A stretch of 64,000 nucleotides of DNA, taken from IMG/VR virus record IMGVR_UViG_3300021431_000005, positions 32,001-96,000 of that record. One strand, given 5' to 3'. The notes under the pieces were generated by a model. The model did not search any database. It was given only the letters and a program-made list of their open reading frames with translations, and had not been told where the DNA came from. Of this stretch, positions 21,561 through 57,956 are shown in pieces. A program made the position numbers and the translations under genes. The stretch is from a virus (lineage: Duplodnaviria > Caudoviricetes). How positions within the stretch are numbered: the stretch's first letter is position 1; the number at the start of each line of letters is the position of its first letter.

Positions 21561-24500
21561 TCATTTCTTGCCAACCAAACGATTCATGTTGGCTTCACGG
21601 ATATACCTATCCATATATCCCCTGAACTCATCATAATTCTTCGCTCTGATGTCGTTACCAGTAAATACAATAGTTGTAGAATTATCTATGCTTCCAGTAG
21701 TTCGCTCGGTAATTCTATCTATGGTTTTGTTATTCATGTAATTCGGAGTTCCGTTAAAGGCACTTGGGTAATTCATAGAACCCGAGAATACACTTGGCGC
21801 ACTATTCATAAACCTGTTCATCTGTTCTGTTTGTCCTGTACTCAATAATTTCCACAGCGTTGAAATCTGCTTATTGTTGAGAACCATTTCAGGATTAGAC
21901 GGTGTTCCATGAAGCATCGCAGGCCCCGTAAAGTCTACAATGCCGCCCTTAGAAAATCCTCTGAATGCCTTTAAAACACCTTCAAACAGAGAACCGATTA
22001 CACCAGATTCTCCACCTTCCCTCAATGCAGAGGTAAATGCTTTTAATGCAAGAGTTTGTTTCTCGGTTGCATTAGCAAATCTTACAGAGTATTCTTCGTA
22101 GAAATCAAGGTATCCCTCTTGTTCCTTCTTTAGCTTTTCATACTGGTCGATTTGCTTGTCATACTCTTTGATTACGCTCTGTGCATCTTCGATTTGAGGT
22201 TCGATAATATAGTGTAACTGATTCTGGAATCCTGCATAATTCAGTGCAAAGGAGTTAATAAGTCCAGTGTCTTTTGCCATAACAGCATCACGCCAGCCAT
22301 AACCAAGTATAGCTGCGGCATTGATTTCGTCCTGTGCATTTTTATACGAGTCGATTGCTTCTTGCCATGCTTCCTTATACTTTTCGTATGCCTCGATCTT
22401 CTCGTCAATCAAAGCAGTTTCTGCATCCCGCTGGCTTTCAAGTTCAGCTATACGATTATTATTGAGCGCATCATCATATTCTCGCTGTGCCTGTTCGAGT
22501 ACCGATTTGTCGCTTTCTATTCTGAATCCGCCACGTTCTTTATCGTAAACTCTGACTTGGGTGTTCCTTGCTTTTGCGAGTGCCAGTTCTTTTTCTCGGA
22601 GTTCGTTAGCACGATCACGTTCTTCATTTTCAGATTTAAGAGCGTCGATCTCGGTGTTGTATCTATCTTCAATTAACTTCTTCTCGTCTTCGAGAGACTT
22701 GATTTCTCGGTCGATTGCGTTCGATACCGCACTTGCCGCACTTTCATAATTAGAGATGATTGTTTCAAGAGCTTCTTTTTGCTCATTGAGGGATTCAAGA
22801 ATTTCATTCTGCTTATCTTTCTCTTCTTCAATAGCCTTGATTTTATCATCGTACAACTTAATTTGATTTTTGAGTTTAATAATAACATCGTTATACCCCG
22901 TGATAGATTCGGGTAACTCTTGTAATCTTGCTATAAGATTGTCAATGGCTTTGATTTGAGATTTATCAGTAAGCGTAGTCCTAATACTTCGCAGAGTTTC
23001 AACCAAATTGTCAGGCGCATTATCTCTAAGTTCAACAAGTTTTCCACGGAGTTTATCTGTATCGTCTATAACAGATATAAGCTCAGGATGGGCAGTAACT
23101 AATCCCCACGCTTCGTCATTATATGTACCTTCGTCAATTGAGTCGATGATCTGTTGTATAGATTCTACATCGCTCTTAATTGCATCTGCCTCATCAGAAT
23201 ACGAAGAGTAATCAAAAGACCCAGACGCAGCCTCCCAAAACTTCTTCGTCAGTTCGTTTATTTTGCTCGCAGCATTTTTAGCCGCTTCTTCTGCACCTTC
23301 GCCGGTAAATTCAAAACCGACCCTAAGTTTGAGATAGTCTTCTCCACCGCTAAGTACCTTTTGTGCATAATCTCTGACTTCTTCGTCACTAAGGAATCTA
23401 GGTGTGCCGTCCTTATCGTATGTTCGAGAAGAAAAGTTTGCCGCACCATTTCCTGAATTAGAAACGATAGTGGTAACTTTACCACCATTTTTAAGCCAAG
23501 CGTTGCCGCCTTTTTCGTATTCTTTAAGGGTATCAAAATACTCCTTGACCTTTTCAGCAGGACTTCTCGTGTCAACATTAACAGGTTGGTTAAACAATAT
23601 ATCAAGCAGGGTTTTCCAACTTGCCGTATTTTCTTTCGCTTTAAGAATATCGTCGTTGAGTGCCTTGACTTTCTTAGTATAATCTGCATACTCAGCCGCA
23701 TCACTCGGAGAACTGATATTATCAGGGGAAGTCACAGTATAGCTTTCTTTGATTGTATCAAGCTGTTTCTCTTTATCTTCCGCCCATTTCTCATTCGCTT
23801 CAATTTCTTTCTGTATGGTTTCTTTGGTTGACTTAAAGAAATTGTTTCTTGCTGTTTCAATATCAGAAAGCGCAATGGTGTAGCCGTCTGCGGTTTTAGT
23901 AAACTTGTCGGCGAGACTAGCATCAATATCAATAAGTTCTTTAACGTCAGCCGCTGAAAGACTCTCGCCTTGTAATAGAGCAGAGCGAGCGGAATCAAGT
24001 CTCGAAAGGCTTTCATTGGTTTTACTGTATGTTTCGTCCTTGAACTTTTTGAGATTCTGATTATAACCATCAAGCAGACTGTTGATTCCCACGGTCTTTT
24101 CAGCAATCATCGACTCAATATCATTGAATGTGGATTCTACGGTGTCCTTTGTAGCCGTATCATTATCGTCAATGCTTTTAAGAGCTACGTCCTTTAACGT
24201 TTTGATTGTTTCAGACCATGTATAAATCTCGGCGCTGTTGGATGAGCCGACGATGTTTTGAGCGTAATTGTAAGCGTTGTTTAGAATCTGCTGAATATCC
24301 TCGGGAATTTCACCCTCGTTGGATTCTCCACCGTCAATCAATTTCTGCATTTCCTCAAACGAAGAAATCAATTCTTTGTCGCGAGATATTTTTTCTTTGA
24401 GTTCTTTGCGCTTTTTATCAATCGCAGTTAACCACGCCATCTCGTTCTTGTTGCTCTTATCTATTGCGCCATCCAAGTCTTTCCAGAGTTTATCAAGAGT

Positions 24501-25613
24501 ATCTGCCTGTTCTTCAAGAGTACCAAATATACCGATATAATTGTAATTTTTGCTACCTTCTATTCCTTGGCGATACCCAATGTTTTGGTACTTCTCAATA
24601 GTTTCTTTATATTTTTCCCAATTTCCCCAACCACTTGCCTTTATTTCTGTTATACCTTTTGTTCCAAAAGAAAGATAAGTGCCGCCGTTGGACATTGTAA
24701 AATCTTTGCCAGCAAATTGACTCTCCTGTTTTAATTCATCTTTGGCATTATCATACCCTGTTTGATTCTCGTTAATAAATTCCTTGGCTCTTTCATAACG
24801 AGCCTTCTGTATCAGGTTAAGATTCTCAACATATTTGCCGTTGACTAAATCAACAGCCTTAGCTTCGTCACCCAGTTTTTCAACCAGCTTATCCTGAATA
24901 GAAGTCAGTTCTTCCTTCGACTTAGTTAAGTCTTCGCCGCTTAAAGCAAGTTTGTCATAAGTGTCAATCAGTTCTTCAATGGCTTCCTGTTCGTTTTTAT
25001 ACTCTTCGACATTTTCTTTGAGCTTTTCAATAGTCTCTTCTATATCAGCTTGTGCTTCTTTTTCTTTGTTGATAAACGTGGTTATTCCAGCGATTATACT
25101 AGAAATTGCCATAGAGACACCAAATGTTAATACTGCATTGAGTGCTACGTTCGCCGCTGTATAAGCCACAGTCTTAGCCGTTGCTCCGACAAGCTGTTTA
25201 GCGCAATCTCCAAATCCCATCTTTGCGCCGTTAAGCCCCTTAATAGTTCCGCCGAGTTTTCCATCAAGGTCTGAAAGAGCATTGGTGTATGCAGTTACCT
25301 GTTCGGGTGCGCCATGTTTTACTAGGTCATTATACTGCTTGATAGCTTTAAAACGCCCTACGATGCCGTTAGACAAATCAATCTGGGACTTATAGAAACT
25401 CTCCATGCTTACATTGGCGGCGTCAGTGTTTTTAGCAAACTCAATAAGGTCTTTGTTTACGTGTTTTAGAGAGTCGAGATTGCCACCCCGATATATTGCA
25501 GTATCTATTTCTTTAAAATCATCAACAGAATATTGAGAAAGTTTATTATATTTTAACCCTTTTAAAAATTCTATCCTTTTTTTATTTGTTGTTTTGTCGT
25601 TTATATTTACTAT
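21561..25613 (-). CDS. Tape measure protein, exon 2
   Basis: Coiled-coil; C-terminal FSKGGIVDFTGPAMLHGTPSNPEMVLN TMP motif. No usable RBS of its own. In frame with exon 1 after predicted splicing (about 2945 aa total). Confidence 0.88.
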   Translation of the reverse strand: MVNINDKTTNKKRIEFLKGLKYNKLSQYSVDDFKEIDTAIYRGGNLDSLKHVNKDLIEFAKNTDAANVSMESFYKSQIDLSNGIVGRFKAIKQYNDLVKHGAPEQVTAYTNALSDLDGKLGGTIKGLNGAKMGFGDCAKQLVGATAKTVAYTAANVALNAVLTFGVSMAISSIIAGITTFINKEKEAQADIEETIEKLKENVEEYKNEQEAIEELIDTYDKLALSGEDLTKSKEELTSIQDKLVEKLGDEAKAVDLVNGKYVENLNLIQKARYERAKEFINENQTGYDNAKDELKQESQFAGKDFTMSNGGTYLSFGTKGITEIKASGWGNWEKYKETIEKYQNIGYRQGIEGSKNYNYIGIFGTLEEQADTLDKLWKDLDGAIDKSNKNEMAWLTAIDKKRKELKEKISRDKELISSFEEMQKLIDGGESNEGEIPEDIQQILNNAYNYAQNIVGSSNSAEIYTWSETIKTLKDVALKSIDDNDTATKDTVESTFNDIESMIAEKTVGINSLLDGYNQNLKKFKDETYSKTNESLSRLDSARSALLQGESLSAADVKELIDIDASLADKFTKTADGYTIALSDIETARNNFFKSTKETIQKEIEANEKWAEDKEKQLDTIKESYTVTSPDNISSPSDAAEYADYTKKVKALNDDILKAKENTASWKTLLDILFNQPVNVDTRSPAEKVKEYFDTLKEYEKGGNAWLKNGGKVTTIVSNSGNGAANFSSRTYDKDGTPRFLSDEEVRDYAQKVLSGGEDYLKLRVGFEFTGEGAEEAAKNAASKINELTKKFWEAASGSFDYSSYSDEADAIKSDVESIQQIIDSIDEGTYNDEAWGLVTAHPELISVIDDTDKLRGKLVELRDNAPDNLVETLRSIRTTLTDKSQIKAIDNLIARLQELPESITGYNDVIIKLKNQIKLYDDKIKAIEEEKDKQNEILESLNEQKEALETIISNYESAASAVSNAIDREIKSLEDEKKLIEDRYNTEIDALKSENEERDRANELREKELALAKARNTQVRVYDKERGGFRIESDKSVLEQAQREYDDALNNNRIAELESQRDAETALIDEKIEAYEKYKEAWQEAIDSYKNAQDEINAAAILGYGWRDAVMAKDTGLINSFALNYAGFQNQLHYIIEPQIEDAQSVIKEYDKQIDQYEKLKKEQEGYLDFYEEYSVRFANATEKQTLALKAFTSALREGGESGVIGSLFEGVLKAFRGFSKGGIVDFTGPAMLHGTPSNPEMVLNNKQISTLWKLLSTGQTEQMNRFMNSAPSVFSGSMNYPSAFNGTPNYMNNKTIDRITERTTGSIDNSTTIVFTGNDIRAKNYDEFRGYMDRYIREANMNRLVGKK

Positions 25614-25641
25614 CGGACTTATAAATATATGTGGGAATATA

Positions 25642-25670
25642 TTGACAAAAATATAATTGCATGATATAAT
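25642..25670 (+). promoter_or_regulatory. Consensus sigma-A promoter of intron cargo gene
   Basis: TTGACA-17bp-TATAAT with extended -10 TG; AAGGAG RBS at 25676-25681. Confidence 0.85.
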
Positions 25671-25681
25671 AATCAAAGGAG

Positions 25682-26149
25682 ATGATGAGAATGTCAGAGA
25701 AATATGTATTTATATGCCCAAAGTGTGGTCAAGTGGAGGGAATTACTTATCCTCATGGAACCATCGTTAATTGTTGTTTCTGTGAAACTCAATTATTAGA
25801 AACCAGTCTTACATTACATGAATCGGCTGAAGCAATAAGAAATGGTACGATTGAAATTATTGACCGCAAACTGTTCGAGCAGTATGTAAAAAACAATCCC
25901 TTGTATGACCAAAATGAGGCAGAACTTTCAAAGCTTAAAAGAGAAACTAATAAGATAGCGAACGAGATGCGGTACGCCGCCGAACGTGCTGTCAAAGAAG
26001 CAAACAAACCGCATTGTCCAGTATGCAACTCAACCAATGTTGAGCGGATCGGCGCAGTCCGCAAAGGTGTTTCAATTGCCGTTTTCGGATTGTTCAGCGG
26101 TGATATTGGAAAGACGATGGTTTGCAATAATTGCGGATATAAGTTCTAA
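25682..26149 (+). CDS. Zinc-ribbon protein encoded antisense inside the TMP intron
   Basis: CPKC/CCFC and CPVC/CNNC knuckle pairs; hydrophobic GVSIAVFGLFS segment; no HNH, GIY-YIG or LAGLIDADG motif seen. Confidence 0.85.
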   Translation: MMRMSEKYVFICPKCGQVEGITYPHGTIVNCCFCETQLLETSLTLHESAEAIRNGTIEIIDRKLFEQYVKNNPLYDQNEAELSKLKRETNKIANEMRYAAERAVKEANKPHCPVCNSTNVERIGAVRKGVSIAVFGLFSGDIGKTMVCNNCGYKF

Positions 26150-26503
26150 AAACATTGTATTGATTTCGCCCTTTTCCCACTATGGCGGCGTGACCATATA
26201 TGATTTTTCAGTATTAAATACTGTTGTCCAGAGTACCCCATCACGATTTTCTACATATCGTTGTAGTTGACCGTGCTACCATTATACTCGTTGAACCTTC
26301 CTTTTCCAAGGCTTGGCTGCGGATTCGATAGCATTTCAGCTATCCTCCCCGAGCGAGAATCATAAAACTCGCTGTGCTATGCACCATGTTCGGTAGTTTT
26401 TCCAAAGCTCTCTTGTTGATATTACGAATACAATATCAACTCGTTCCGTGTTACCACCAGAGCTTACTCGGGCATATTCGCTGAGGGCAAACATTTTAGC
26501 CCT

Positions 26504-29500
26504 ACCCGAGCCTGTTTTCATTTGCAGTCCAGTTAAACCGAACGCAGTCGCTATTCCTGCGCCTGCCGCCGCACCATTCTTGGCGATTCCGTCTAATAAT
26601 TCAAGAAGTGTCTTTGCGCCGTCAATGAGAAATTTGACGGCTTCGCTGTTTACGGTATCAACTGATAACTGCTGCCATGTGGACTTCAACTGATTAAGTT
26701 TTCCGTCTATAGAATCAAGAGAAGATTCTAACTCCTTAGAAGCCGAACCTTCTGCAAGTCCCTCGTTCAAATCTTCAACAACTTTTTCTGCTGTCTCGAA
26801 GTTTCCAAGGATCGCCTGAACTGTATTAAGACCAACTTTACCACCAAGCATTTCGGCAATATCTGCTTGCTGCGAATCAGTTAACGTGTCATACACCCCA
26901 GAGATTTCTTTGAGTATCTGGTATGTAGATTTAAAAGTATTTTCGTCTTGCATAATGTCAATTCTTGTAATACTTTTTATCTTATCACGCAGTTCAGCAG
27001 TAGTAATTGTCATTTCTTCTGCATCTTCGCCAAGCTGATCCGTTGTGCCTCGGATTCTTGCAGAAATAGATTTAAGTGCCGTGCCAACAGTTTCCGTATT
27101 CTGTACGATAGTATTGGCAGAAGTAATAAGACCTATGGATTCGTTGAGATCGTTGCCTGCCGCATTCAAGGATGCCGCCGACCTCTGTAACGCATCGCCT
27201 ACTCCCTTGCTTGTGATTGCGAAGTTGTTGCCAGTATAATTGAACTTATCAACAATTTCTTCTGCGGTTACGCCGATTTTCTCATAAGCCTGCATTGTCG
27301 AAATAATGCTTTGGCTCGCTGTCTGAATATCTAAATCGTCGCCGACGGTTTTATAAACCGTTGCAAGTTTACCAAGATTTTCAGCTTCATTCAACGATTT
27401 ACCTAATCGACTGAACTCAGAGGTTGCATCAACATAATCCGTGAGTGTAGCACCTATATCCACAGAACGACCGCCTGCTGTATCTAAATACTGTTTGAGC
27501 TGTCTCTCGTTTGCATCTGTAACCTTTCTAAGATTCGTCATTGCAGTATCAACTTCATGAACCTGAGTAACCATATCTTTGAGCAATCTCACAGTATAGT
27601 TCAAACTCTTGGTAACAAACGCCCAACCGCCGTACTTCTTATACAATTCTCCAAGTACGTTACCGAAAGTCTTGCCGGACACGCCAGCTTCTTTAACGGT
27701 TCTGTCAAGTGCCGACATATCCGCTCTTAATTTATTCAGGTCTTTATCACTTTGAATTGCGCCCATGCTTATCCTATTAGTTAGTTCTTCATAGGCTTTT
27801 GCGAAATAAGGGTCTTTAAGCGCCTTAGAGTTATCGTCACCCCATTTTCCGAGTCGCTTTACTGTTTCTTCGTATTTTTTCTGAAAAGCAATTGCTGCGT
27901 TATCTGCCTGCTCCTGCTCTTTCATCGCTTTATTACTTTCTTTTTGAGCAGTTGTAAAATTATTTACGGCTTCGGTAACTTCGTCAAGTCTGTTAATATA
28001 TTCTATTAAAGGCTGAATTGAATTACCAAAGTATTGTTCTTTAAGAAAATCAGCGTCTTTTCCCTGAGCAGATGCCGCATTCACGATATATTCATTCTTT
28101 CGGCTCTCAAAATTGTTTGATAACGCTTCGAGCTGATTATTGTCAAGATTACCGATATTTGCCAGAATCTTTTGCGTTTCCCCACCGCTATCTCTGAGTT
28201 GTTTTAATAGCTTTTTAAGTTTTTGAACCTTTTTAGAGAAGTCGTCTATCTCGATATTACTACCATCGAAATTAAACATTGTTAGTCTTGCATCGTCATA
28301 ATCCTCGTATGCTTTGTGAATCTCGGATTCGTATACTTCAGGTTCTTCGGCTAAATATGGATTCTTTGAATAATTGCTTATTACCCCAAGTCTATATTCG
28401 AGAACTTTGAGTTTTTCTGTGTTACCGCCTGCAGCTTCAACCATTTTAATTGTACTACGCAATGTCTCTAACTTCTCATTTGCTTTCTCAGATTCAGAAA
28501 TGATCTCTCTGAGTGAAATAGCTAAGTCAGAAACGGTTTGAATATCATGAGATTCTTTTTGTAAATAATCAGTAAATCCCTGATCTTGACTATACAAATC
28601 TTCTTTGATTTGATTAACTGTATTACCAGATAAATTGGGTCGTTGAACCTTTTTGAGCATACTTTCGGCATTTGTATAAAAAGTAAGTATTTCATTAAAC
28701 TTATGTTCAAAATCATCTATTGGTTGAGATGTGGCATTAGGATGATTATCAAAATACCGTTTTATGTATTCAAATGAATCAAATACTTTTTTTACCGAGT
28801 CAAAATAAGTTGTAATATCTTGCCCAAGAGTCGCAGCTCTTTTAACAATTGCAGGATTGCCATTGGTAGTTATGGGAAGAGTTTGGGAATACGACAAGAG
28901 AGTATTTATGTCACTAATGTTTTTTTTCTGCCAATTCCCGAAGGATCTATTGTGTTCTTCCAACTCCTCCATTAATTCTTTGCGTTTTTCTTCAGATAAG
29001 TTTGCCTTGTTTATCTTCTTCACAACGTCTTCAATGTTTGAATAGATAACACGCATCTGTTCATATAATTCATTAAAGCCAGCTGTTGTGTGTGGCAATT
29101 GAGAATTGGTTTCTTTTAAAGATTTATCGAGAAATTCAAATAAATCATAATTCTCTTTTACTGTTGAAGATATTTCAAACGCTCTCTGTCTATCAGAGGC
29201 GGCGTTTTCAATTCCGCCAACGGTATTATCCTGAGTTTTAGAAGCGCCGCTGTTAACTATAGTTGGTTGATTTTTTTGTAACAGCTGCATAAGCTGTGCG
29301 AGCTGCGCTTGTGTCAGAAGACCACCGCTTGAATTTACTAATGCACTAAAATTAGTAACCTCAGTTTTAAACGTCTTGCCAAGTTGCGCTATTATATTAT
29401 CCAACTTCTTGCCAACGACATCAGCGTAATTGTCTTTGTTGTTAGCATTAGCAATCGACTTGTTGATTGAATCCGCCAAGGTTGCAATCTGTGTTTTGTA

Positions 29501-31288
29501 GAACACCTCGTTCACAGACTGTTCGTTGTCAACAGATTCAACTTGTATAGGCGAGTCAAACTTAGAAATCAGATTGTTGATAGCTTCTATTATTGTGTTA
29601 AGAAGATTGTTTACTTCGGGGGTCGTAGTATCATTCTGCTCTGTGTTTTCTTTTGTCTCAATAGCTTCGCTGATAAAGTCGTTTGTCCATTCGAGCCTGT
29701 TTTGTATATCCACGATACGCTCTGTTAACGATTCTTCATAAATGGGTTCTACACTTTCATCATTGTGCATTAACTGAGACTTTAAAAGACTATCTTCTGC
29801 AAAATCAACATTGATAGTTTGATTAAGTTTTTCGTAAATCGAATTAAGTTTTGTGCCAATAGAAGCAAGATTATTTATAATGTCAGGATCCACTGGTGTC
29901 TCAGGGGGAGGAGGTGAAGTTGTTGTGTCAGGATTTGATTCTTTTGGTTTATTGTTTTGCTTAATTTCGATATGTTTTGACAAAACATCACTCTCGACGC
30001 TCTCTATCTTTTTGAGTCCGTCAGCAATCATCTTTATAGATTTTGCGATTGTATCAAGTTTATTTGGAACTACAAAATCAATGTTGATTTCATGAGTCTT
30101 ATTGTCTATTTCATTGAGTATATCAGACAAAACTTTTAGTCCATTATCTTGTATATCAACTTTAATCTTAACGTCCTTGGATTCTACATTTGACAACTGT
30201 CCAATTGTTTGATCCAATTTGCCGACTTCTTTATTTACGTTCCCAACATTGCTTTCCAATGCTCTGATTGTATTATTGGTTGCATGAATATATTCTTGTA
30301 AAACAGAAACAGTTTGGCTCATTGGCGAAAGCGTAGTTTCGTTTACCGAATCAAAAGTATCCTTAAATATTTTTACAACCTGTATCATTCGTTTTATAAC
30401 ATCTTCAAGATTTTGAAAAGGAGAAGCCATTCCTTTTCCCGCATTTTCAATCGCATCAGTTGTTTTAGTTAGTTGTTTTATTTCTTTTGGTACAGGGAGT
30501 ATATCGCTTGCTTTTATTGTGTCTTGGGTTAGTTTAAAATTATTATTCCATGCCCTTCCAAAGCTTGATGCTGAAACCCCTATTTCAGTATACAGGGCTT
30601 TAAAGTCATCTTTATATTGTTTAGTTTCATCCGAAAAAGATTCGAGAGTTTTAATACTACCCTTAATATTTGAATTGAAGTCTAAACTGGGATCAATTTT
30701 TAATAGTGTTTGAAGTTTATTTAATACACCATAGGCTTTATTTGCAGTATCAGACAGCATTCCAATTTCATCAACCATCGCTTCGTATGCTTCCTTTGTT
30801 GTCTTGCTGTCTTTTCTGCCGGATTGCATGGCGCGTTGTAGATTACCGAAACTTTCTACCGCCTCTGGATCGCCAAGAGTTTCGTACATATTGGTTATTT
30901 CACTATTTAAATTAAGAAACTCGCTTTTTAAATTATCAAATGTTTTTTGAAGCGTTGCCTGATCCGTCATAATATCAGGTCTAATTTTCGAGAGAGTCCT
31001 AAGTCCTTCGAGAACTTCTTTGCGAAGTCCCTCGGAATCAAACTTGACTTTAAAAGTCTTGTTTATTATTTCGCTTCTGCCACCCATATTGAGTATGCGT
31101 CCAATAGCTTCGTTTACTTTGTTTAATTTTGAAGCTTCAACTGGACTATCGTTTTCTTTGATTATATAATTTGCCGTAATATTTACGCCTTTGGACTCAA
31201 GCTTTTGTATCTTTTTTTCTAAATCATCCAGTTCTCCGTTGTTGACTTTTGTATCAAACACTATATCAAAATTGCTATTTTCATCCAT
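26504..31288 (-). CDS. Tape measure protein, exon 1
   Basis: ATG 31288 with GAGGTG RBS; TP901-type core VDTAMTNLRKVT...VDKFNYTGNNFAIT...GTALKSISARIRG...FKSTYQILKEIS. Confidence 0.9.
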
Positions 31289-31298
31289 TTGTCTCACC

Positions 31299-45029: not shown

Positions 45030-45113
45030 TGGGGAGGGTTGGACTCGAACCAACAACGTTTCTAATGTCACGGTTTTACAGACCGCTTGCTTCACCAATT
45101 TGCATACCGCCCC
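45030..45113 (-). tRNA. tRNA-Tyr(GTA)
   Basis: GGGGCGGTATGCAAATTGGTGAAGCAAGCGGTCTGTAAAACCG...GGTTCGAGTCCAACCCTCCCCA cloverleaf with long variable arm. Confidence 0.88.
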
Positions 45114-45234
45114 AAAAATAAAGAGCCAGCACAACGCTGACTCAGCTATATAGCTTATTAAAAACCTTTCGAGTTTGCCACCTAATAGTGAGATAGTTAC
45201 TGTCGAAAGATTGCTGTCATGAGTAAATTAGTAT

Positions 45235-46014
45235 TTAATCCTGCTCAATCACAGGGAGAATGTTTTGTTCCTTTAGTTTTTCATATAGAAATAATCTTCC
45301 CTTTTGTGTCCAATAAGTATGCACCCAAGAACGCTCTCCATTTTGACCCGTCTTAGTTTTTGTGTATCCTTTATCGGCATACTTCTGATACAATACCCAA
45401 GTATCACCGACTTTGTACTGTATGCCATTATCATGCAACCACTTGTTTAACCAGTTCGCAGATTCACCATAGTCTTTTGCAATCTGAGTTACCGAAAGAA
45501 CATCTTTTGTTTGAAGCACAAGATCGTAGTATGTAACCTTGGGTTCATACTCTGCAATCTGTTGTGCCTGAATTGCATTTTCGGCTTCAAGCTCCTTGCG
45601 TCTTTGACGTTCTTCTTTTAGTGCAGTCAAAGCCTCGATTGCAAGGTCTGGATTATTTATTATTTCATCAATTGCAAATAGTCCATGCCTGCGAATGGAC
45701 GGAAGAACCTCACTTGTTACCCAATGCTTGAATTTTTTGGCATCGGGCAATTTGCTTGAAAGGATAAGACTATACAGACCGCTTTCGTTAATAAGCCAAC
45801 CGCCACGCTGTCCGAGATTAAGATTGCAACTCAATAGCGTTTTGCTATTGAGTTTATCTTCTATATCAACATGATCTCCTATTGCTTCATTAGGATTACT
45901 ATACCCAAGAATAGCAGCTACATCTTTTCCAACAAACCACGGTTCGCTGTCAACACTTATCGTTCTTACACTACCAAATTCTTCATTCTCAAATACTTTT
46001 ACAATTTCATTCAT
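45235..46014 (-). CDS. BRO-N / KilAC antirepressor
   Basis: FENEEFGSVRT...PWFVGKDVA...INESGLYSLI...FKHWVTSEVLPSIR; SVTQIAKDYG...WTQKGRLF. Confidence 0.92.
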   Translation of the reverse strand: MNEIVKVFENEEFGSVRTISVDSEPWFVGKDVAAILGYSNPNEAIGDHVDIEDKLNSKTLLSCNLNLGQRGGWLINESGLYSLILSSKLPDAKKFKHWVTSEVLPSIRRHGLFAIDEIINNPDLAIEALTALKEERQRRKELEAENAIQAQQIAEYEPKVTYYDLVLQTKDVLSVTQIAKDYGESANWLNKWLHDNGIQYKVGDTWVLYQKYADKGYTKTKTGQNGERSWVHTYWTQKGRLFLYEKLKEQNILPVIEQD

Positions 46015-46106
46015 AATCATTTCTCCTTTAATAATATATATATCAAAGGTGGATGAGAAAGTTCCCCGTAATTCCATTACTGACACACAGTCAGCCTATG
46101 ATTATT

Positions 46107-46817
46107 TTACATTTTATCTGCCCACGCCGATAGTTCGCCCCTGTAATTCTTAGATAAGTGACACACCCTTGCCCACTCTTTATCCTTAAAGTGGTCGATA
46201 CATTTAACAAGTCCAGAATCCTCGGGCTTGATTCCTTGAATTTGTAAGGTTGAACCAATAACACACACATAACAATCATCATGACAGCGAGTGAGAACTG
46301 CCTTTAATTGCTCTTTGGTCATGCACTGCGCTTCGTCAATGATTATAAACTTCTTAGAAAAATCGCTACCAAGAATATACACATCGGTCATTGTTGTAAA
46401 AATTCCCGTTCCCATTTTCTGATTTATGTAAGTATCATCATTGATAACCGCCACCGGGTTCTCTCCTAAATTGATTAAGGTGTGTACTAACGGAGCCATG
46501 TAGGGTGCTTCCTTGTTTTGCTTTTCGCCCGGAAGGAAGCCTAGTCTGCCTTCGGAACTCGGTGTTCTTATATAATAAGCTTCATTACATATACCATACT
46601 TTACATACATCAATGCAACCGCAACCGCAAGAGTTGTTTTACCTGAACCGGCCACTGCGTCAGCCACAACTAACCTCACGTTTCTATCCCAAAGGCTGTC
46701 TCGATAGTATAACTGTTCGGGATCAGAACAGTCGAGACCGTAAAAGGGATGGTCTTTAAGTGTTAAAGGGGGATTGCCGTAAAGACTCTGTGCATTTTTC
46801 TTTGTATTCTTTGCCAT
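46107..46817 (-). CDS. phoH: PhoH-family ATPase
   Basis: AVAGSGKT, LGFLPG, IIDEAQ, LTR, NYRG motifs. Confidence 0.88.
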   Translation of the reverse strand: MAKNTKKNAQSLYGNPPLTLKDHPFYGLDCSDPEQLYYRDSLWDRNVRLVVADAVAGSGKTTLAVAVALMYVKYGICNEAYYIRTPSSEGRLGFLPGEKQNKEAPYMAPLVHTLINLGENPVAVINDDTYINQKMGTGIFTTMTDVYILGSDFSKKFIIIDEAQCMTKEQLKAVLTRCHDDCYVCVIGSTLQIQGIKPEDSGLVKCIDHFKDKEWARVCHLSKNYRGELSAWADKM

Positions 46818-46832
46818 ATTATAACTCCAAAT

Positions 46833-47456
46833 TTATAGTATTTCATCAAGGTCTTCAAGTATCGTATTGACACATTTGTATTTGAGCTGTTCTTCGGTGG
46901 TAAGGAACCAATCCGTCTTTGACTTTCTCGAAAGAATGTTCTTGGGTATCTCTGACCTTTCAAGAATATAGGCGTATGTTTCATCTATCATTTTTTTGTA
47001 AGACTTTGTTCCTTCTTTTACTTCTTCATAGCTGCCTACCACACCGCCAGAACCACTGTGAATAAGCATCTGTGATCTTGGCATACAATATCTTTCATGT
47101 CCAGCAAGAAGCAAAAGTCCTGCCGCACTATATGCCATATTCATATTTACGGTGATAACAGGAGTTTTTGACCTTTCAATTATCGCAATAGTTGCAAGCA
47201 TAGAAACAAGACTTCCACCCTCGCTATTTATAAGAATTACAATCTTCTTTCTGCCTGCAATCGGAATGCCTTTGTCCTGTCGATTATATTCAAGTATCTG
47301 TGTTCCGACCTCATTCAAAAACATCTCGTTAATTTCATAATCCACAACAATTATTCTATTGCTAAGATTGTTATAATAGTTTACAAGATCGGGATCGGGC
47401 AGCTTGTAATCTGCGGTTTCCTTTGATATGGGGATTGTGATAGTAAAATCTTCCAT
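46833..47456 (-). CDS. clpP: ClpP-like protease
   Basis: INSEGG, AYSAAG (Ser), LIHSG (His), TDWFL (Asp). Confidence 0.88.
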   Translation of the reverse strand: MEDFTITIPISKETADYKLPDPDLVNYYNNLSNRIIVVDYEINEMFLNEVGTQILEYNRQDKGIPIAGRKKIVILINSEGGSLVSMLATIAIIERSKTPVITVNMNMAYSAAGLLLLAGHERYCMPRSQMLIHSGSGGVVGSYEEVKEGTKSYKKMIDETYAYILERSEIPKNILSRKSKTDWFLTTEEQLKYKCVNTILEDLDEIL

Positions 47457-47517
47457 TCTTTACATTTCTCCTTGTGTGGTTTAAAAAATTATTAAGCCCT
47501 GCTATCAGAACTTGTGA

Positions 47518-47591
47518 TACGCTCGACAGGAATCGAACCTGTGACCTACACTTTATCAGAGTGTCGCTCTAGCCGACTGAGCTACAAGCGC
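47518..47591 (-). tRNA. tRNA-Ile(GAT)
   Basis: GCGCTTGTAGCTCAGTCGGCTAGAGCGACACTCTGATAAAGTGT...GGTTCGATTCC. Confidence 0.88.
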
Positions 47592-47599
47592 ATATATAA

Positions 47600-47670
47600 T
47601 GGCGAGTTTGGGAGTTGAACCCAAAGCCACGGAATATGAATCCGTAATGTTACCTTTACACCAACTCGCA
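47600..47670 (-). tRNA. tRNA with CAT anticodon (Met/fMet/Ile2 identity unclear)
   Basis: Cloverleaf with ACGGA-TTCATAT-TCCGT anticodon arm; U1-C72 mismatch. Confidence 0.75.
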
Positions 47671-47767
47671 ATAATCGGTTTACCCCTTTCAGACACATCT
47701 TACTCAGGGCTATTATCCGTCCGAGAACGATAACTACAATAGTTGCAACCGAAAACTACTTGACGCA

Positions 47768-47840
47768 TGATCGAGAGGGGATTTGAACCCACTGTTACCA
47801 ACGTGAAAGGCTGGTGTCTTTACCACTTGACTACTCGACC
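47768..47840 (-). tRNA. tRNA-Glu(TTC)
   Basis: GGTCGAGTAGTCAAGTGGTAAAGACACCAGCCTTTCACGTTGG...GGTTCAAATCC. Confidence 0.85.
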
Positions 47841-54207: not shown

Positions 54208-54933
54208 TTAAAGCAGATCAGAGATCGCATCGTAATATCTGTCTTGTCTTTCACGGTCGAGTCCACAGTACCTCAGCGTAGTCCTGCTTGAACTGTGATT
54301 AAACATTTCCTGTACATCTGCGAGCGTGAGGACATCGTTAGGGTTTGAGCGTATCGTGTGGTAGCCAAACGTCTTTCGCATAGTATGTGTGCTAAGATGC
54401 TCTTCAAGTCCAAGGGCTTCCTGCGGTGCGTGGACTATCCTATAGAGTTGGCTCTTATCTAACTTGCCACCACGTTCAGACTGAATCAGGTAGTCATCGA
54501 ATGTCAGCTTTTTCTTGGTGACGAACAGGTAGTCTCTGATTGCTTCTGCGGCACGAGCGCTAAGTTTGGGATCGTTCCTTTTATTGGTCTTTTGTTCTCT
54601 GATTATTATGTGATGCTTAAACGAGCCGTCCTCGTTAATCACATCTCCGATTCTAAGATTGAGAACATCGCTTGCTCTAAGCCCTGTACTGGTTCCGAGG
54701 ATGAATGCCATTAAATTGCGGCGACCGTACCACTCTGTTTTGGCGTTGCTCAAGATATACTCTTCGATCTGTTTGAGAACTTCGGGGTCTCGGATAGGCT
54801 CGGCGGCGGTTGCCTTTTTGATGTTTTTCGAGGTGTACCGTGAGGTCTTGTCTGACTTCTTCGGCTGTACGAACTGCGAGATTTCAATGCTTGTTGCCGT
54901 GGATTCGGGCGAGATTTTTCTTGCTGTGTTCAT
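54208..54933 (-). CDS. Catalytic-domain-only tyrosine recombinase (resolvase-like)
   Basis: TGLRASD, EQKT, STHTMRKTFGY, FNHSS...TLRY. Confidence 0.9.
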   Translation of the reverse strand: MNTARKISPESTATSIEISQFVQPKKSDKTSRYTSKNIKKATAAEPIRDPEVLKQIEEYILSNAKTEWYGRRNLMAFILGTSTGLRASDVLNLRIGDVINEDGSFKHHIIIREQKTNKRNDPKLSARAAEAIRDYLFVTKKKLTFDDYLIQSERGGKLDKSQLYRIVHAPQEALGLEEHLSTHTMRKTFGYHTIRSNPNDVLTLADVQEMFNHSSSRTTLRYCGLDRERQDRYYDAISDLL

Positions 54934-57867: not shown

Positions 57868-57956
57868 GCTGACATAGCCGAATTGGTTAAAGGCGCGGAC
57901 TCAAAGTCCGTTTCCGAAGTACAAGGAATCTGTTGGTTCGAGTCCAACTGTCAGCA
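57868..57956 (+). tRNA. tRNA-Leu(CAA)
   Basis: GCTGACA/TGTCAGC acceptor, GCGGA-CTCAAAG-TCCGT anticodon arm, long variable arm, GGTTCGAGTCC. Confidence 0.85.

Follow-up and report, generated by a model that had tools for sequence, protein, structure and literature searches.

The gene for the tape measure protein (TMP) of the phage IMGVR_UViG_3300021431_000005 is split into two large ORFs, and the 890-nt gap between them holds a gene on the opposite strand. This raises the question of whether the gap is an intron and, if so, what an antisense gene does within it. Phage group I introns are usually treated as selfish homing elements. Here, the locus appears to belong to a widespread intron family in SPbeta-like gut phages of Clostridia that is kept without a homing nuclease as an accessory-gene island of up to 8 kb. 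Coordinates are positions in the window, the 64,000-nt stretch of this record that was analysed, and L-numbers denote the loci of relatives.

The window lies in a complete genome of 117,052 bp with terminal repeats. Its tail module is classed as SPbeta-like because relatives encode the YomN/U/V/W and YonB/D families. The loci of these relatives were found in Clostridia and bacterial genome contigs; with the TMP exon as query, none were confirmed in viral contigs. A temperate life style is suggested by three tyrosine recombinases (~1750-2330, 54250-54760, and one just left of the window). No CI-type repressor scored above the cut-off in the genome, with an HTH_3 repressor falling below it, and a genome scan found no serine resolvase. 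The window also contains five tRNA genes (45030-47840 and 57868-57956).

The initial annotation read the gap as a group I intron whose removal restores a TMP of about 2945 aa. All the core elements that it named were found where it had placed them, and P2, P3, P4-P6, P8, and a weak P10 were identified in the follow-up. The predicted features of the TMP gene are as follows.

26504-31297, minus strand: TMP 5' exon, 1598 codons with a PhageMin_Tail domain (PF10145, E 1e-19; phrog_4211, E 4e-71)
21561-25613, minus strand: TMP 3' exon, 1350 codons, matching phrog_4211 positions 957-1640
26503-25614, minus strand: group I intron, 890 nt, identified by in-frame joining and covariation; its core occurs once in the genome
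26467-26510, minus strand: P1, P1a hairpin, and P10 guide region (P10 guide, 26479-26474)
26510-26504 (exon) and 26473-26467 (IGS), minus strand: P1, 7 bp, with U-G at 26504/26473 marking the splice site
26226-26466, minus strand: ribozyme core P2-P8, with two hairpins between P3 and P4 and with P4-P6 present
26396-26392 and 26280-26276, minus strand: P3, 5 bp
26325-26312, minus strand: Q motif
26289-26285 and 26235-26231, minus strand: P7, with a G-C guanosine pocket pair
26229-26226 (5' strand) and 25618-25615 (3' strand), minus strand: P9.0, 4/4 paired
25614, minus strand: omega-G, the terminal intron base
26360-26362, minus strand: stop codon reached 47 codons into the intron if it is left unspliced

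Joining 31297-26504 to 25613-21561 in silico gives 2948 codons in one frame without an internal stop, or 2945 if counted from an ATG three codons into that frame, and the spliced junction reads MKTGSG/IVNIND as the initial annotation had it. Both parts match phrog_4211 in colinear order. They also align with an intronless full-length TMP, P0025 (2862 aa), which has no core at its locus and shares 32-33% identity with the 3' exon over its C-terminal half. A distant alternative 3' exon was considered and rejected, as only one acceptor opens into a long frame and the genome holds no second C-terminal half. The 3' exon itself contains sharply divergent blocks (~24450-24800 and 25350-25610) in comparison with relatives that are otherwise 95-100% identical, giving a mosaic tape measure.

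The fold has the hallmarks of a group I ribozyme. A P4-P5-P6 domain with P/Q/R/S elements is present, with compensated changes in P5, P6, and P6a, alongside a P3-P7 pseudoknot with the G-C guanosine-binding pair and a bulged base. P7, drawn with 6 bp, contains two compensated pairs; its next-but-one pair from the pocket is G-C rather than the usual C-G, and the bulged base varies between A and C together with a flanking pair. Such covariation of the bulged base with a P7 pair is also seen in known group I introns. Subgroup IA, as in the TMP-IVS1-3 introns, is defined by one or more extra stems, P7.1/P7.2, between P7 and P3. This assignment was rejected: the P3 3' strand begins just 4 nt after the P7 5' strand, and a P7.1 extension is lacking. 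P10 is paired at only 4/6 positions in this copy compared with 5-6/6 in relatives. The search with Rfam RF00028 that had been proposed as a check returned no match in the stretch, either at the gathering threshold or at E<=10, a match to this model being a detector of group I introns rather than their definition. Similarly, blastn of the core against 50,697 GenBank phages gave only 45-nt matches, and no cultured phage with the core. A core model made for this analysis also finds canonical cores in two single viral contigs, where five to six lie within a few kb (L005:9300-14700 and L006:2400-6900).

Further evidence for the intron comes from its closest relatives, which were gathered through homologs of the TMP and of the cargo gene. 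In a hand-drawn structure of 72 pairs across six aligned cores, 97.4% of positions are paired and 22 pairs have changed on both sides, compared with 90.1% and 11.7 double changes in shuffled controls and 32-44% pairing with slid partners; as the set is six related sequences, these counts are not to be read as probabilities. The double-sided changes include P1, P5, P6, and two P7 pairs, and P1 is 100% paired in the six relatives with one double change. The non-coding core is also better conserved (74-79% nucleotide identity) than the flanking coding exon (60-62%).

A search with a nucleotide pattern drawn from the 5' splice region extended the family to 41 contigs from viruses, 6 from genomes, and 74 from metagenomes, nearly all with the match at the same TMP position (>100, redundancy not removed in either count). 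Six matches that appear unrelated to TMP (L056, L072, L081, L087, L096, L101) were left out. Both ends could be read in 28 introns at this site, which range from 459 to 8038 nt. All 28 join the TMP in frame, end in G, and have P1 paired at 6/6 with an invariant U-G. The two strands of P9.0, which lie up to 7.7 kb apart, are 92% paired over 13 distinct combinations compared with 78.5% when shuffled (2 of 20,000), in a test that is partly circular because the P9.0 score helped to pick the 3' site in ~8 of the 28. Shuffling of P1 and P10 is uninformative in this set because both hardly vary; in the 4622-nt intron of L003, the guide and exon strands of P10 and P1 have changed together. Additionally, family junctions of the form KNVG/IFK resemble the KNLG/IFD of intronless TMPs. 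No RNA sequencing run was listed as containing the stretch, and contigs of two DNA-type and two RNA runs displayed neither an exon junction nor RNA coverage, a result that has no bearing on splicing. The conclusion that the 890-nt gap is a group I intron of the TMP gene, predicted to be spliced, is well supported by these comparisons.

Variants of this arrangement were observed among the relatives. The large KNVG subfamily (L010, L012, L033, L036, L091, L114) has an extra unpaired base after the guanosine-pocket G of P7, the flanking pairs still covarying, while the pocket of the window intron is normal. A second subfamily (L135:13592-14648), likewise inserted at this TMP site, differs in its P1a, has a canonical P7, and carries a sense-strand gene with its own promoter. 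In three loci the TMP gene has, further upstream, an additional intron of the conventional kind (L001:3775-5395, L003:14900-16870, L136:11150-12438) bearing sense HNH-like or CapR/DUF4379 ORFs. Judged by these ORFs, homing-type and cargo-type introns coexist within one TMP gene.

Within the window intron, the P9 region holds the cargo gene and its upstream signals.

25682-26149, plus strand: antisense cargo gene, 152-155 aa with four CxxC motifs
25642-25681, plus strand: predicted sigma-A/70 promoter (25642-25670, matching at 12/12 positions, with an extended -10 TG) and SD

Both the double zinc-ribbon gene and its TTGACA-17-TGnTATAAT promoter had been recognised in the initial annotation and were recovered here, with the amendment that the SD best suits an ATG at 25691, giving 152 rather than 155 aa. 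Perfect promoter sites with a 17-nt spacer occur only three times in the 117-kb genome, and sites with 11-12/12 matches lie at the same place in L001, L002, L009, L042, and L132. The dN/dS of the cargo against L001/L002 is 0.17-0.20 at a dS of 0.6-0.9, which is the signature of a real gene under purifying selection. Its predicted structure (pLDDT 82) consists of two C4 zinc ribbons linked by a long helix, with the second ribbon bearing a hydrophobic, poorly modelled loop. Fold searches returned generic matches only, namely zinc ribbons and helices (best Foldseek E 0.44; best VIA Z 3.4 with rmsd 5.4 over 68 residues), and the Atlas led to unnamed zinc-ribbon clusters in Bacillota and their phages. 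PADLOC and family searches assigned the protein to no defence system or family.

Homologs of the zinc-ribbon protein form the joint largest cargo cluster, with 11 members. Those in L001, L002, L003, L136, and L138 are all antisense and adjoin a TMP-like 3' half. One such homolog, P0014, has a TMP-like fragment as its neighbour and belongs to a decayed, transposase-bearing element that sits within a histidine operon (L137/L138:3400-8700). Like phage morons, the gene has its own promoter and is sporadic among close relatives. As the genes of relatives in the same slot include toxin-antitoxin and defence genes, the best guess is a lysogen-expressed, putative host-interaction or phage-exclusion factor, which is given an even chance of being right. 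The initial annotation had likewise proposed a lysogeny-expressed moron for superinfection exclusion or defence, in a slot that would be phenotypically silent.

The contents of the slot vary widely. Two of the 28 complete introns are empty and lack the promoter, and 26 carry cargo. In each of the 26, an antisense ORF lies closest to the 3' splice site, with its start no more than 160 nt away. Near-identical cores are found with four unrelated cargoes: the zinc ribbon of the window, a 215-aa gene in L009, a 94-aa gene in L132, and RnlA/RnlB in L131, whose contig stops short of the 3' splice site, so that these genes come after the core and may be enclosed. Across the relatives, cargo families include ToxN/AbiQ, PemK (twice), RnlA/RnlB, GmrSD_N, NYN, DUF3800, DUF3990, and Bro-N; most cargo ORFs match no family, and the defence families occur only in other members. 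A same-site candidate intron of ~5 kb with a weak-looking P1 in Anaerovorax sp. IOR16 (GCA_017168145.1; L136:5895-10916) carries the zinc-ribbon gene, a Bro-N antirepressor, and a transposase. L107 contains a sense-strand ORF of 486 aa that combines DUF4379 repeats with a Vsr/EDxHD-like tail and is probably a true homing nuclease (HEG). The retention of this ORF fits an origin of the family as a mobile intron.

Compared with L001/L002, the window is 98-100% identical in the core, 66-80% in the cargo, and 51-63% over the 200 nt that open the 3' exon, and identity is back at 94-98% soon beyond them. This profile indicates that recombination moved the cargo together with the beginning of the 3' exon, as one block. 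The earlier suggestion that the intron may be a variable cargo hotspot across related phages is supported by this comparison of same-site cargo, which uncovered sets of unrelated genes.

Taken together, these data favour, at a probability of roughly 80%, a group I intron that would be spliced out of the TMP message and that carries an independently promoted, exchangeable antisense cargo. During lytic growth, the late transcript would be made from the minus strand and the core would fold within the first ~290 nt. Guanosine would then attack at the U-G pair, with P9.0 and P10 drawing the distant omega-G into the pocket. Exon joining would yield a message for the ~2945-aa TMP and, going by the structure, remove the contents of the P9 loop. 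Independently of this, a host sigma-A promoter lying within ~60 nt of the intron's 3' end would drive the cargo on the opposite strand, most probably while the phage is a prophage and its late operon is silent. The mosaic identity suggests that homologous recombination, acting between the conserved core on one side and the TMP sequence downstream on the other, swaps the cargo. Some observations count against this reading: P10 is weak in this copy, the cargo has no evident terminator, no CI-type repressor passed the cut-off, and unspliced translation would proceed for 47 codons in the window intron and for 107-110 codons in L009/L132, through the whole core, and so might interfere with folding. 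In phage introns described so far, ribosomes usually meet a stop within 27 nt (PMC2504315).

An alternative is that antisense transcription is itself the point, with cargo RNA that extends into the complement of the core blocking, through pairing or polymerase collision, the splicing or synthesis of the TMP message in the lysogen or in a superinfecting relative. The strong promoter always lies at the 3' end facing the core, and the near identity of the core among relatives means that antisense RNA could pair across phages. A scan here found no intrinsic terminator for the cargo, only a weak hairpin, and some antisense control of splicing is conceivable because no terminator is evident. Conversely, L009 has a clear terminator-like hairpin 3' of its cargo, the promoter is far from the core in multi-kb introns, and the empty introns have no promoter at all. 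As the main purpose of the arrangement, antisense blocking is therefore considered unlikely.

A related proposal combines both functions in a domesticated, splice-hidden defence island with a switch, in which the antisense promoter expresses accessory genes in the lysogen while read-through controls production of full-length TMP, resulting in exclusion at the RNA level. Control may be exerted by read-through RNA from the cargo or by long ribosome read-through into the core, and exclusion may be aimed at related phages sharing that core. This proposal is also given a low probability.

Alternatively, the intron could splice but serve as a neutral sink, its loop tolerating inserts and its cargo bringing no benefit tied to position. 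Any spliced loop would accept DNA, two introns are empty, and the transposase in L136 shows that insertion sequences also land there. The low dN/dS argues against this, as do the intact 12/12 promoter amid diverging surroundings, the constant orientation and placement of the last gene (26/26), and the zinc-ribbon homologs, which at all five loci checked adjoin a TMP-like 3' half. Neutrality is thus quite unlikely to account for the locus.

A weak rival dispenses with splicing: two separate proteins would make up the TMP, and the gap between their genes would be a moron slot containing a decayed intron or other structured RNA. Aeh1 nrdA, which is split by mobE, is the model for such a two-protein gene. 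In its favour, each half is a long ORF, 15 of the 28 introns close with an ATG in frame with the 3' half, P10 is weak in this copy, and Rfam returned no match. However, the other 13 end in ACG, CTG, TCG, TTG, or CCG (CCG in the window), and the codon ending at omega-G tracks its P9.0 partner with no SD ahead of it. The 3' half has no conserved start or SD, with its first in-frame ATG at codon 70, again without an SD. The preserved frame and terminal G in 28/28 and the compensated long-range changes in P9.0 and P10 likewise speak for splicing, making separate proteins very unlikely.

Finally, an ordinary mobile intron, in which the antisense ORF encodes an unrecognised mobility factor or homing nuclease directed at TMP alleles that lack the intron, is barely plausible. 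In its favour, homing nucleases are the normal product of intron ORFs (PMC3984707), alleles without the intron do occur, and L107 has its probable HEG. Against it, the cargo ORF contains no HNH, GIY-YIG, LAGLIDADG, or EDxHD motif in Pfam, PHROGs, and motif scans, its invariant residues are almost solely cysteines in a model of two zinc ribbons and helices, and near-identical introns hold unrelated cargo.

If the favoured reading of a spliced intron with exchangeable antisense cargo is true, it would account for many cases in which the TMP of these phages is annotated as truncated or split. It would also define a new guilt-by-location hotspot for anti-phage genes, as ToxN, RnlAB, PemK, and dozens of unmatched ORFs are located there. 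Furthermore, it would mean that group I introns in bacteria can splice with kilobases of coding RNA inside them, and would point to ribozyme cores undetected by Rfam.

Several known systems share parts of this arrangement. Phage morons such as HK97 gp15 are sporadic genes with their own promoter inside a morphogenesis operon and are presumed to be expressed in the lysogen. Morons lie between genes, whereas the cargo here is inside an essential reading frame and would need RNA splicing. Group I introns are known in TMP genes from TMP-IVS1/2/3 of Bacillus cereus-group prophages and from Lactobacillus phage JCL1032 (PMC2504315). As here, these are in-frame introns of prophage TMP genes with P1/P10 guides adapted to their site. 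They belong to subgroups IA1/IA2 and contain a homing nuclease, a remnant, or nothing, with no antisense or accessory genes mentioned (PMC2504315). The present core differs from TMP-IVS1-3 in lacking P7.1, in its two P3-P4 hairpins, in being missed by Rfam and blastn, and in carrying 0-8 kb of accessory genes.

IStrons such as CdISt1 and BcISt1 join a group I ribozyme to IS genes in the 3' part and were given as the exception in a review in which intron ORFs are otherwise homing nucleases (PMC4227781, PMC3984707). They resemble the present intron in their extra 3' genes and in splicing that renders the insertion harmless (PMC4227781, PMC3984707). An IS (TnpA/TnpB) forms the cargo of IStrons and carries them to numerous sites, while the present intron has one fixed site and a single copy, and its variable cargo has for the most part nothing to do with mobility. 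No IS605/IS607 transposase or TnpB was matched by Pfam, and the relatives are all at the same TMP site, in a search that was site-specific. The ND5-717 intron of hexacoral mitochondria is a further parallel, as a group I intron that interrupts an essential gene, contains independently functional genes, and reaches a length of up to many kb (PMC6545197). It differs in residing in animal mitochondria, with core respiratory genes as P8 cargo and back-splicing in giant forms, compared with rapidly swapped accessory genes in P9 of a phage intron. The initial annotation had proposed an undescribed system. This holds for the accessory-gene slot, as no published description of cargo-carrying TMP introns was found in a search that mostly did not cover subscription journals, and does not hold for introns in TMP genes or for introns carrying non-homing genes, both of which are already known. 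No paper in that search describes a fixed-site phage intron that, as on this reading, serves as a variable accessory-gene island.
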